Source of the DNA: an uncultured Bacteroidia bacterium
GTDB lineage: Bacteria; Bacteroidota; Bacteroidia; Bacteroidales; UBA932
Direction: 5' to 3'
Length of the DNA: 28,749 nucleotides
NCBI GenBank assembly: GCA_902797895.1
Contig: CADBUS010000078.1
Coordinates: forward strand, 1-28,749
The position numbers and the translations under genes were made by a program. The notes beneath the pieces were generated by a model. That model worked only from the letters and a program-made list of their open reading frames with translations. It was not told the DNA's origin and ran no database searches. This document shows, piece after piece, positions 1 through 28,749 of this stretch. Position 1 is the stretch's first letter. Each line of letters starts with the position of its first letter.

Positions 1-1047
1 ATTTGTTTGAGGCAGTAAGGCTGCGCGAGCAAACTTGTCGCTACTCTCACATATCGGCCCAACTACATCGTAACACTCTGGTTTTCCTTTAGATGTAAGA
101 TTATCTATAAAGTGGTGAGCCTGATAGAGTGCAGGGCGAATCAAATCATTCATACCTGCATCCAATATCACAAACTTATTCTCCCTGCCAATTTTAACAT
201 ACAAAACTCTGGAAATCAGATAACCGCACTGTGCCACAAGCGCCCTGCCCGGCTCAAAGTGGACTTTCTGTCCAGGGCGAACTATCAAGTTCTTGTGTAT
301 CAGCTCAAAATACTCCTTAAAGTTGGGTGTGGGATTTTGCAAAGGGGTATCGTAATCTATCCCAAGTCCTCCGCCAAGATTAAGATTCTCTATCTCTATT
401 CCACGCTCTATAAACCAGCTCTGCAACTGCTCTACCATCTTGCACAGCAATGGAAATACGCTCATATCGGTAATTTGGGAGCCTATATGAAAATGAAGCC
501 CTATCAACTTAACATTAGAAAGGCTTTTTAGCTTCTCAACCACAGCCTCAAATTCCCAGGGGCTTATTCCAAACTTATCTTCTTTGCGCCCTGTGGAGAT
601 ATATTTATGGGTGTGTGCATCTATATCGGGATTAACTCTCAGCGATATATTTGCCACCTTTCCCAGCCCTGCAGCCAAATTGTTAATAACCTCAATCTCA
701 GGAATACTCTCGCAGTTGAAGCTGAAGATGCCGGCCTTTAAGGCGGCCCTTATCTCCTTGTCGCTCTTACCAACACCGGCATATACTATCTTAGATGGAG
801 CAAAGCCGCTCTTTACAGCCAACTTAACCTCATTTCCGCTAACGCAATCTGCCCCAAGACCAAAACTACGTATTATCTCCAAAATATGCGGCTCTGCATT
901 GGCCTTAATTGCATAGTGAGCATTATAGCCATACTTGTCAATCAAAGAATTATACTCAGATAGAGTCCGTTTAAGCAGCTCAACATCATAGTAATAAAAG
1001 GGTGTTGGCAGCTTCTCGAATCTCCGTATGGCCTCTTTAGAAATCAT
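1..1047 (-). CDS. lysA: Diaminopimelate decarboxylase (3' end runs off the window; absent from the ORF track)
   Basis: Manual translation from ATG at 1047: MISKEAIRRFEKLPTPFYYYD...HYAIKAN (PLP Lys)...HFHIGSQ...LNLGGGLG...FEPGRALV...DVVGPICESSD; frame open to position 1. Confidence 0.95.
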   Translation of the reverse strand, partial: MISKEAIRRFEKLPTPFYYYDVELLKRTLSEYNSLIDKYGYNAHYAIKANAEPHILEIIRSFGLGADCVSGNEVKLAVKSGFAPSKIVYAGVGKSDKEIRAALKAGIFSFNCESIPEIEVINNLAAGLGKVANISLRVNPDIDAHTHKYISTGRKEDKFGISPWEFEAVVEKLKSLSNVKLIGLHFHIGSQITDMSVFPLLCKMVEQLQSWFIERGIEIENLNLGGGLGIDYDTPLQNPTPNFKEYFELIHKNLIVRPGQKVHFEPGRALVAQCGYLISRVLYVKIGRENKFVILDAGMNDLIRPALYQAHHFIDNLTSKGKPECYDVVGPICESSDKFARAALLPQTN

Positions 1048-1051
1048 CGTA

Positions 1052-1059
1052 CAAAATTA
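1052..1059 (-). promoter_or_regulatory. Bacteroidota housekeeping -7 promoter element (TAATTTTG) for lysA
   Basis: Exact TAnnTTTG match 4 nt upstream of the lysA ATG; no clear -33 TTTG. Confidence 0.6.
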
Positions 1060-1097
1060 ACAATTTTTTCTTATCCATATTTGTGCGTAGCTGTGGG

Positions 1098-1135
1098 AAA
1101 GAGAAAGGGGGTGCCAAATACTTTTTGGTACCCCC
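1098..1135 (-). terminator. Intrinsic terminator after the lipoprotein gene
   Basis: Minus strand GGGGGTACCAAA-N5-TTTGGCACCCCC (12-bp stem, one mismatch) followed by TTTCTCTTT, about 30 nt after the stop at 1164. Confidence 0.8.
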
Positions 1136-27135: not shown

Positions 27136-27151
27136 TAAACAATAAACAATT

Positions 27152-27571
27152 ATGAACGAATTGTTAGGATATCTCGGACTTGGTTTAATGCTTGGCCTTG
27201 CCGGAATAGGAAGCAGCATTGGAACAACCATTGCAGGTAATGCAGCAGAAGGAGCCTTAAAGGTTAATCCGGAAAAATCCGGTAACTATATGGTTCTCTC
27301 CGCACTCCCTGCAACACAGGGTATTTATGGATTCGTAGCCTTCCTTGTATGGCTTAGCAAAGATTTTGCAGCCAATGGTCTGCTCCTCTTTGCTGTGGGT
27401 ATAAGTGTGGGAGCCCTCTGTTTGCTCTCATCTATCCGCCAAGGAAAAGTTTGCGCCAACGGAATTGTTGGTGTATCTCAGGGGCACAATGTATTCACCA
27501 ATACCCTTATTTATGCAGCCCTTCCGGAATTCTACGCCATATTGGGCCTTGTTGGAGCACTAATGATATAA
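27152..27571 (+). CDS. atpK: V/A-type ATPase subunit K (4-TM proteolipid) with Na+-site signature
   Basis: [23 protein letters not shown]; four hydrophobic segments. Confidence 0.95.
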
Positions 27572-27577
27572 TTGCAG

Positions 27578-28749
27578 ATGACTCTGATTAAATCAATTTC
27601 CGGAATTAGAGGAACTATAGGCGGAGAGGTGGGCAATTCCCTCTCCCCTATTGATATTGTGAAGTTTACAGCCGCTTACTGCACTCTCCTCAAAAAGAGA
27701 AACAGCGGTAAAAAGCTAAAGATTGTAGTTGGAGCGGATGCTCGCCTGAGCAGAGAGATGGTAAACAGATGCGTTTGCGGAACTCTGCTTGGTTGCGGAG
27801 CCGACATTATAGATGCCGGCCTGGCCTCCACCCCAACCACAGAGATGGCCGTAATACTCTCAAAAGCAGATGGCGGAATAATACTCACCGCCTCCCACAA
27901 TCCAAGGCAGTGGAACGCCCTAAAACTGCTCAACAGCAAAGGCGAGTTCCTTACTGCGGAAGATGGAGAGGAACTATTGCAAATAGCAGAAAAAGAGGAG
28001 TTTGAGTTTGTAGATGTAGATGCTTTGGGCAAAGCTGAGCAGAGAGATTTTACTATGGCTCATATAGATGCAGTTCTTGCAGACAGCTTGGTGGATGCCT
28101 CTGCCATTAAGGCCGCAAAGTTTAAGGTTGTTTTAGATGCCATAAATTCTGTAGGAGGAGTTACAATGCCACTCCTTTTGGAAAAACTTGGAGTTGAGTG
28201 CATTAAGCTCAACTGCGAGCCTACAGGCGACTTTGCCCACAATCCGGAACCGCTCCCTCAAAACCTTGTAGAGCTCTCAGAGAGAGTAGTTAAGGAAGGG
28301 GCAGATATGGGTATCTCGGTAGATCCCGATGTAGATCGCCTCGCCTTTATGTGCGAAGACGGCACACCATTCGGAGAGGAATATACACTTGTGAGCGTAG
28401 CCTCATACGTACTTGAAAAGAACCCTGGAGCAACAGTTTCAAATCTCTCATCTACAAGAGCTTTAAGAGATGTTACCGAGGCGGCAGGGCAGAAATACCA
28501 CCCCGCTGCAGTTGGAGAGGTTAATGTTACCTCAAAGATGCACGAGGTTGGAGCTGTAATCGGCGGAGAGGGCAATGGAGGAGTCATCTACCCTGCTCTC
28601 CACCACGGCAGAGATGCCTATATGGGAGTTGCACTCTTCCTTACAAACCTGGCACATAAGAGGTTAAAGATGACTCAGCTCAGAGATTCATATCCTCAAT
28701 ACTTTATATCAAAGAACAGAATAGAGGTAGCGGATAGTGCTGTTGCAGC
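27578..28749 (+). CDS. glmM: Phosphoglucosamine mutase (runs off the window; absent from the ORF track)
   Basis: MTLIKSISGIRGTIGG, TASHNP (phosphoserine), DPDVDRL (metal loop), GGEGNGG. A phosphomannomutase paralog cannot be excluded. Confidence 0.85.
   Translation, partial: MTLIKSISGIRGTIGGEVGNSLSPIDIVKFTAAYCTLLKKRNSGKKLKIVVGADARLSREMVNRCVCGTLLGCGADIIDAGLASTPTTEMAVILSKADGGIILTASHNPRQWNALKLLNSKGEFLTAEDGEELLQIAEKEEFEFVDVDALGKAEQRDFTMAHIDAVLADSLVDASAIKAAKFKVVLDAINSVGGVTMPLLLEKLGVECIKLNCEPTGDFAHNPEPLPQNLVELSERVVKEGADMGISVDPDVDRLAFMCEDGTPFGEEYTLVSVASYVLEKNPGATVSNLSSTRALRDVTEAAGQKYHPAAVGEVNVTSKMHEVGAVIGGEGNGGVIYPALHHGRDAYMGVALFLTNLAHKRLKMTQLRDSYPQYFISKNRIEVADSAVA

Follow-up and report, generated by a model that had tools for sequence, protein, structure and literature searches.

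Near-complete loss of CATG and CTAG from the genome of an uncultured rumen Bacteroidales bacterium, with signs of continuing selection against both words

Avoidance of palindromes in prokaryotic chromosomes was reportedly described by Gelfand and Koonin in 1997. Host genomes are typically far less depleted than an observed to expected ratio (O/E) of 0.02-0.05. Enzymes recognising CATG are common and mobile, as the systems of H. pylori and chlorella viruses illustrate, and the NlaIII, IceA1-HpyI and FatI systems all target this 4-bp word. For Type II restriction-modification (R-M) systems, site avoidance takes the form of a Markov-corrected under-representation of palindromes that is lineage-specific and in which CTAG often stands out; a system that was gained recently shows no footprint, and footprints can be found where the gene is absent (Rusinov et al. 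2015, PMC4687349). In most bacteria CTAG is depleted whether or not they carry R-M (PMC4687349). Here we describe a stretch of 28,749 bases (the window) from an uncultured Bacteroidales bacterium, from which CATG and CTAG are both missing. The purge shares the features listed above and is an extreme case of the restriction-site avoidance already known from host chromosomes. Unlike the usual Type II case, it has at least three words at an O/E of 0.02-0.05 at once (about 2-5% of expectation), selection that can be seen directly to continue among strains of the species, and no recognisable cognate system or enzyme for either leading word in the source assembly. It also stands out by its depth and by fast, repeated purges of CATG among relatives.

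The window is the entire contig C78 (positions 1 to 28,749), the longest of 215 contigs in a 1.68-Mb metagenome-assembled genome (MAG) with a completeness of 83.7% and a contamination of 0.14%. It is core housekeeping DNA, carrying genes for IOR, an aminotransferase, a coenzyme A (CoA) transferase, RecF, methylmalonyl-CoA decarboxylase and the V/A-ATPase, and both words are missing from both strands. Under a second-order Markov model, from which expected counts were taken, 67 CATG and 56 CTAG were expected (109 of each from base composition) and none was found. The remaining 14 palindromic 4-mers all occur in the window, with ACGT (11), TCGA (19) and GATC (29) being scarce. Genome-wide, 166 CATG were counted against 4,523 expected (O/E 0.037) and 72 CTAG against 3,339 (O/E 0.022), by far the lowest values among all 256 tetramers. 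Since this rate predicts about four sites in the window, the zero found there is typical of the core genome and no local oddity. These exact counts agree with an earlier note on this DNA, which had reported the absence of both words, the presence of the 14 others and the scarcity of ACGT and TCGA; the genome-wide extent that it proposed was also borne out, and the agent that it could not see in the window is indeed not among these ordinary core genes. The genome-wide, Markov-corrected under-representation that restriction-site avoidance requires was found for both words.

The constraint acts on the DNA irrespective of frame and strand, by way of silent changes. Across the genome, histidine is encoded by CAT in 4% of cases before G as opposed to 43-59% otherwise, and leucine by CTA in 0.2% before G as opposed to 7-12% otherwise. 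Codons in front of an internal ATG have C as their last letter at a frequency of 0.25%, compared with 22% overall, and none of the 162 stop codons that follow a C is TAG, which makes up 31-42% of stops after other bases. All four contexts match the earlier claim of a DNA-level avoidance that holds regardless of frame. A synonymous change is available to remove any occurrence of either word, which explains how a near-total purge is affordable.

The purge is probably maintained by continuing purifying selection on CATG and CTAG at the DNA level, since nucleases cutting these words would be acting in the population. Evidence that selection is continuing comes from word gains among strains. Twenty loci were retrieved (94-99% identity), of which 10 non-redundant ones were used, and true word gains relative to the window were compared with 200 simulations placing the same substitutions at random. 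Only 2 gains of CTAG were observed against 35.1 simulated (ratio 0.06), and 15 of CATG against 41.4 (0.36). Gains were likewise few for GATC (7 against 38.9, 0.18), ACGT (4 against 26.7, 0.15) and TCGA (13 against 32.5, 0.40), and for none of these five avoided words was any of the 200 simulations as low as the observed gains. The control words GTAC, TGCA, AGCT, AATT and GCGC gave ratios of 0.97-1.13, and they are the guard for the shared ancestry of the strains and for a simulation that is blind to codon position. The deficit of gains among strains argues against a purely fossil footprint. A second test on read variants had no power, with no site-creating change among the 40 of 946 variants listed, where 1.0 was expected.

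A mechanism can be proposed. Site-specific nucleases cutting CATG and CTAG would be active within the population of the species; for CTAG we take these to be enzymes of the BfaI, MaeI or MjaI type, and for CATG of the FatI or NlaIII type. Each chromosomal site would carry a small fitness cost, most plausibly because the cell now and then cuts its own DNA while methylation falls behind or while a system is being acquired, lost or switched. In the long run, all silently removable sites would be eliminated, and sites would persist only where RNA function forbids change, as in transfer RNA (tRNA) genes, or where DNA arrived recently, as in islands. The data show the purge itself, its independence of frame, replacements that use whichever silent change is at hand and so follow selection and not mutation, its persistence in present-day strains, and purges of equal depth in relatives with resident nucleases. 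We infer that the agents for both words are R-M systems in the unassembled or strain-variable gene pool of the species. The earlier note had put forward long-term purging by resident restriction or modification-dependent systems; purging of a restriction type is the best-supported cause, with no resident system for either word recovered from this 84%-complete MAG.

Sites survive mainly in two settings. Of the 238 residual sites, 104 fall in nineteen islands of 30.6 kb in total, where their density is close to normal, and 11 of the 37 tRNA genes retain CATG or CTAG, at about 3.9 sites per kb (for example C43, 6871-7020, and C21, 1188-1261). The other 1.64 Mb contains 0.08 sites per kb against 4.7 expected, with those sites enriched near contig ends, and the O/E of the core is about 0.01-0.02. 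Residual CATG shows no flank preference. Site-rich islands lie on contigs C167, C45 and C203 (loci L084, L087 and L085), and the islands encode a SIR2-STAND protein, type I HsdR/HsdM with a Schlafen/AlbA_2-HATPase gene after them, and HsdS adjoining a tyrosine recombinase (integrase), the last pair being a possible specificity shufflon. Each island shares its contig with site-free core genes, so the islands must have been acquired recently and integrated, and do not stem from faulty binning. That the cell tolerates of the order of a hundred sites fits a small cost per site, and not certain death. The tRNA genes are the chief class of conserved sequence to escape the purge.

The purge extends to several more words, among which CATG and CTAG are merely the most depleted, and this wider extent had been missed in the earlier note. 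The AccI site GTMKAC, including its non-palindromic forms GTAGAC/GTCTAC, has a genome O/E of 0.046, as against 0.43 for the sister class GTYRAC and 0.69 for GTNNAC. Other depleted words are AAGCTT (0.11), CATATG (0.15), TTTAAA (0.25), GATC (0.28) and GATATC (0.30). This pattern fits enzyme specificities, degenerate ones included, over general composition, and a purge that tracks the degenerate specificity of a single enzyme is hard to explain except by a nuclease. Some further compositional features were seen. CCAG/CTGG has a genome-wide O/E of 0.42 although CCWGG is normal (0.97), GACCC/GGGTC stands at 0.45, CCCGGG is over-represented (2.98), and CCGG was gained among strains at 3.1 times the simulated rate.

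Relatives of the source genome provide positive controls for a nuclease. The working label G000 denotes the source MAG, G001-G025 its relatives and L numbers the sampled loci, from which word counts in relatives were taken; for G001, G002 and G018 the samples were of 134-142 kb. In G002 an AccI-family nuclease (626 bits) and a gamma methylase are inserted beside smpB (L164/L214), and the O/E of GTMKAC is 0.041, compared with 0.73 in G001, which is without AccI. In G018 the value is 0.045, but the smpB locus (L213) holds only a 321-bp spacer, and no AccI remnant was found in this spacer or in the source MAG. The source genome therefore shows the same degenerate footprint as the AccI R-M system (Pfam RE_AccI, PF09545) and, unlike the carrier G002, has neither gene nor remnant. 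This footprint, which lay outside the finding of the earlier note, validates the nuclease mechanism. G001 has a GGNCC-type cassette within a CATG-rich island, and the O/E of GGNCC there is 0.84, a missing footprint that is as expected for a cassette of recent arrival.

For CTAG, the family represented by the MjaI, MaeI and BfaI systems (Pfam RE_MjaI, PF09568) occurs in both the family and the genus of the source, and none was detected in the source genome itself. MjaI-family nucleases were present in 18 of 300 sampled family genomes, covering 14 of 37 genera, with many copies fragmentary. Two of the 29 sampled genomes of the same genus were carriers, with CTAG at 0.02 and 0.11. Genomes of this genus lacking the MjaI family are equally purged of CTAG (G165, 0.03; G249, 0.05), which calls for a nuclease of a different family or for a copy that was once present or was not assembled. 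The patterns among relatives agree with a published model in which a system is gained, stays for long, is lost and leaves a trace that lingers (PMC4687349).

The distribution of the purge among relatives is patchy and lineage-specific, as restriction-site avoidance requires. Orthologous loci around the V-ATPase A gene came from uncultured rumen and gut Bacteroidales, with Candidatus Egerieousia, Coprenecus and Cryptobacteroides among the named relatives. Across 80 such loci nearly the whole family is low in CTAG, L077 (74/87) being an example of an exception, and CATG ranges from 0/97 to 144/146. With the purged state set at a CATG O/E below 0.2, at least eight changes are needed on a family tree built from V-ATPase A and B; the comparison with relatives proposed in the earlier note thus revealed a patchy CATG purge. 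Among 12 sampled genomes of the genus, only the source species has lost nearly all CATG and GTMKAC, and the CTAG O/E extends from 0.02 to 0.72. The change can be fast. Three very close relatives (loci L037, L047 and L061) have CATG at 0.83 (G018), 0.013 (G001) and 0.039 (G002), and between G018 and G002, at 84% DNA identity, none of 86 CATG sites is conserved compared with 45-60% for control palindromes. The purge can therefore be complete before neutral sites saturate. Three loci (L009, L019 and L028) with titles that name Eggerthellaceae, Oscillibacter and Acutalibacteraceae nest inside the Bacteroidales on the V-ATPase tree, and their source MAGs are probably mislabelled. The source species was present in 20 public runs from 17 studies, mainly of bovine and sheep gut. 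A search of the source MAG for 16S ribosomal RNA gave no match, and no clustered regularly interspaced short palindromic repeat (CRISPR) arrays were found that might link it to phages.

Several points weigh against selection by nucleases acting in the population. Profile searches identified no CATG- or CTAG-specific enzyme or methylase in the source MAG, where the D12, C5, AccI, MjaI and ICEA/NlaIII families all gave no match. No CATG enzyme candidate was found in the source genome or the 25 relatives, using profiles that did not cover FatI-type proteins, and the absence of ICEA/NlaIII matches (Pfam ICEA, PF05315) from these 26 genomes is a weak negative, control genomes having given none either. 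In the enzyme survey of relatives, comprising 13 CATG-purged and 12 CATG-intact genomes, no methylase class tracks CATG depletion, and the strongly purged G001, although well assembled, shows a GGNCC-type system only. The only type II cassette that the source MAG carries is excluded as the CATG agent, as set out below. Depletion of CTAG is common in bacteria, as the earlier note had said and the literature confirms (PMC4687349), and part of the CTAG signal could thus have another cause. The gain test, finally, relies on strains that are not independent and on a codon-blind simulation, with only the control words as a guard. It is most likely that the agent was missed because the relevant cassettes sit in strain-variable DNA that was lost by MAG assembly or binning.

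The source MAG contains two DNA methylases only, the type I HsdM of an island and a beta-class N6/N4 methylase on contig C29. The latter belongs to a type II R-M cassette (L082, 8075-9965) made up of a helix-turn-helix (HTH) controller (8075-8317, + strand), a MamI-family nuclease (8318-9319, + strand) and the methylase, which is convergent with the nuclease and truncated by the contig end. The cassette is nearly site-free despite its lower GC content and so appears long-resident. Contigs of other bacteria that bear intact homologs have normal CATG, at 93/99, 99/101, 64/71, 52/52 and 30/29, with CTAG mixed, and the MamI site GATNNNNATC is avoided neither around these homologs nor in the source genome. 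All of them are GATC-poor (e.g. 2/44 and 15/67), and a genome with a broken copy has 147/156, which suggests from word counts a GATC-type specificity for the cassette. With CATG normal around intact homologs and the family absent from the 13 purged relatives, it is excluded as the CATG agent; as a CTAG agent it is unsupported, given the mixed CTAG counts.

Other leads for CATG were also rejected. D12 matches in relatives belong to DpnII or other cassettes, the C5 methylase of G001 is flanked by TdeIII and EcoO109I nucleases, that of G002 and G008 is an HTH-fused orphan of prophage type, and a 521-amino acid Eco57I-like protein belongs to the conserved core and is shared by an intact genome. 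Strong type I HsdM matches were seen in 9 of the 13 purged relatives compared with 1 of the 12 intact ones, and purged lineages look generally richer in R-M systems.

These negative results bear on a different account, in which the purge is driven by a nuclease that is unpaired with a resident methylase. Candidates would be a phage or mobile-element nuclease attacking the DNA of its host, or an endonuclease that is solitary or phase-variable; for CTAG, avoidance of the target sites of insertion sequences or DNA-structural effects are alternatives. We consider such a driver unlikely, and doubt in equal measure that an agent other than a resident R-M system, whether a phage or mobile nuclease or a solitary or phase-variable endonuclease, upholds the purge. 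The lack of a cognate methylase in the source MAG and in the purged G001, G007 and G010 favours it, as do the unusual depth and speed of the purge and the CTAG depletion known in many bacteria without R-M (PMC4687349). However, about 100 or more tolerated sites, 11 of them in tRNA genes, fit a small cost under methylation protection better, and the classical AccI and MjaI systems give an equal depth of purge in relatives. A structural cause cannot yield a CTAG O/E that varies from 0.02 to 0.85 within one family, and MAGs routinely lose strain-variable islands. If it were true, an agent outside R-M would have driven rumen species to drop a word quickly and repeatedly, at least eight times in one family, and it would explain why well-assembled purged relatives lack a cognate methylase of the searched classes.

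Somewhat less likely still is a fossil footprint, in which the cognate R-M systems disappeared in the distant past, leaving a slowly decaying trace under no present selection. A footprint without its gene is a published concept (PMC4687349), and GTMKAC offers two instances, in G018 (0.045, no AccI gene) and in the source genome (0.046, no AccI remnant). This reading is at odds with the rates at which strains gain CTAG and CATG, 0.06 and 0.36 of those simulated when neutral palindromes are at about 1.0. Moreover, with an O/E of 0.02-0.04 hardly any decay can have taken place, and the many independent lineages below 0.07 would all need to have lost their systems very recently.

A mutational sink, as offered by the earlier note, would dispense with selection on the words; here the methylated C of CATG and CTAG deaminates, or very-short-patch (VSP) repair converts the sites. 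It can be judged from what replaced the lost sites. At positions where close relatives keep CATG, the window most often has TATG (58 of 117), followed by AATG (17), CACG (12), CATA (10) and CTTG (4), and where they keep CTAG it has CGAG (9) or TTAG (6). At 15 window positions CATG is shared by three or more of 6 relatives, and at none of them has the window kept it, the replacements being TATG in 10 cases, CATA in 2, and CTTG, CACC, AATG and CACG in one each. Examples on the + strand are a CATG shared by 5 of 6 close relatives that is now TATG (18736..18739), a CATG that is now CACG through a T>C change of histidine CAT to CAC, which is no deamination product (22325..22328), and a CTAG of 5 of 6 relatives that is now CGAG through a T>G transversion (17453..17456). 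A second CTAG (23662; 4 of 6 relatives) has also become CGAG and a third (27164; 3 of 6 relatives) TTAG.

That TATG is the commonest replacement of CATG, and that TATG/CATA is mildly over-represented genome-wide (1.17), are what a sink would lead one to expect. However, 1.17 is below the 1.41 of GATG/CATC, and TTAG/CTAA stands at 0.82, so the predicted C-to-T products are not in excess; the transversion to CGAG is the commonest fate of CTAG, and CACG, AATG and CCTG are common too. The ratio of 58 TATG to 10 CATA on the coding strand reflects codon constraint, which strand-symmetric deamination would not produce, and this asymmetry together with the frequent transversions is the prediction of codon constraint plus selection against the word. 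In the unsaturated comparison of the sisters G018 and G002, about half of the CATG replacements are neither C>T nor G>A, and no sink could remove all of the 86 sites if half of them require changes other than transitions. Neither a C5 methylase nor Vsr was found in the source MAG. Deamination of 5-methylcytosine was rejected for want of a TTAG/CTAA excess and for its strand-asymmetric, often non-transition replacements, and loss of CTAG by VSP repair of the Vsr/Dcm type for want of the enzymes and of any enrichment of its products CCAG/CTGG (0.42). The sink is thus very improbable. An artefact that arose during library preparation, assembly, polishing or binning has next to no likelihood, and only the fragmentation of the MAG into 215 contigs speaks for it. 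Digested DNA could not have been assembled through the cut sites into contigs of up to 28.7 kb, neither a restriction-site nor a partial-site signature is seen at contig ends, independent assemblies and contigs of other samples and studies are purged in the same way, and site-rich islands are continuous with site-free core on the same contigs.

With continuing selection by nucleases as the probable cause, a core genome that has lost two 4-bp words and a degenerate 6-bp word to about 98% illustrates the extent to which a bacterial chromosome can be shaped by defence nucleases. The sister pair of the purged G002 and the intact G018 is a clean natural experiment for the CATG agent and the speed of the purge, and the tRNA genes that retain sites are natural probes for methylation status. 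The profile of avoided words is a practical read-out of the restriction barriers of an uncultured rumen lineage, useful for designing DNA to be introduced into it and for linking phages and plasmids to their hosts.

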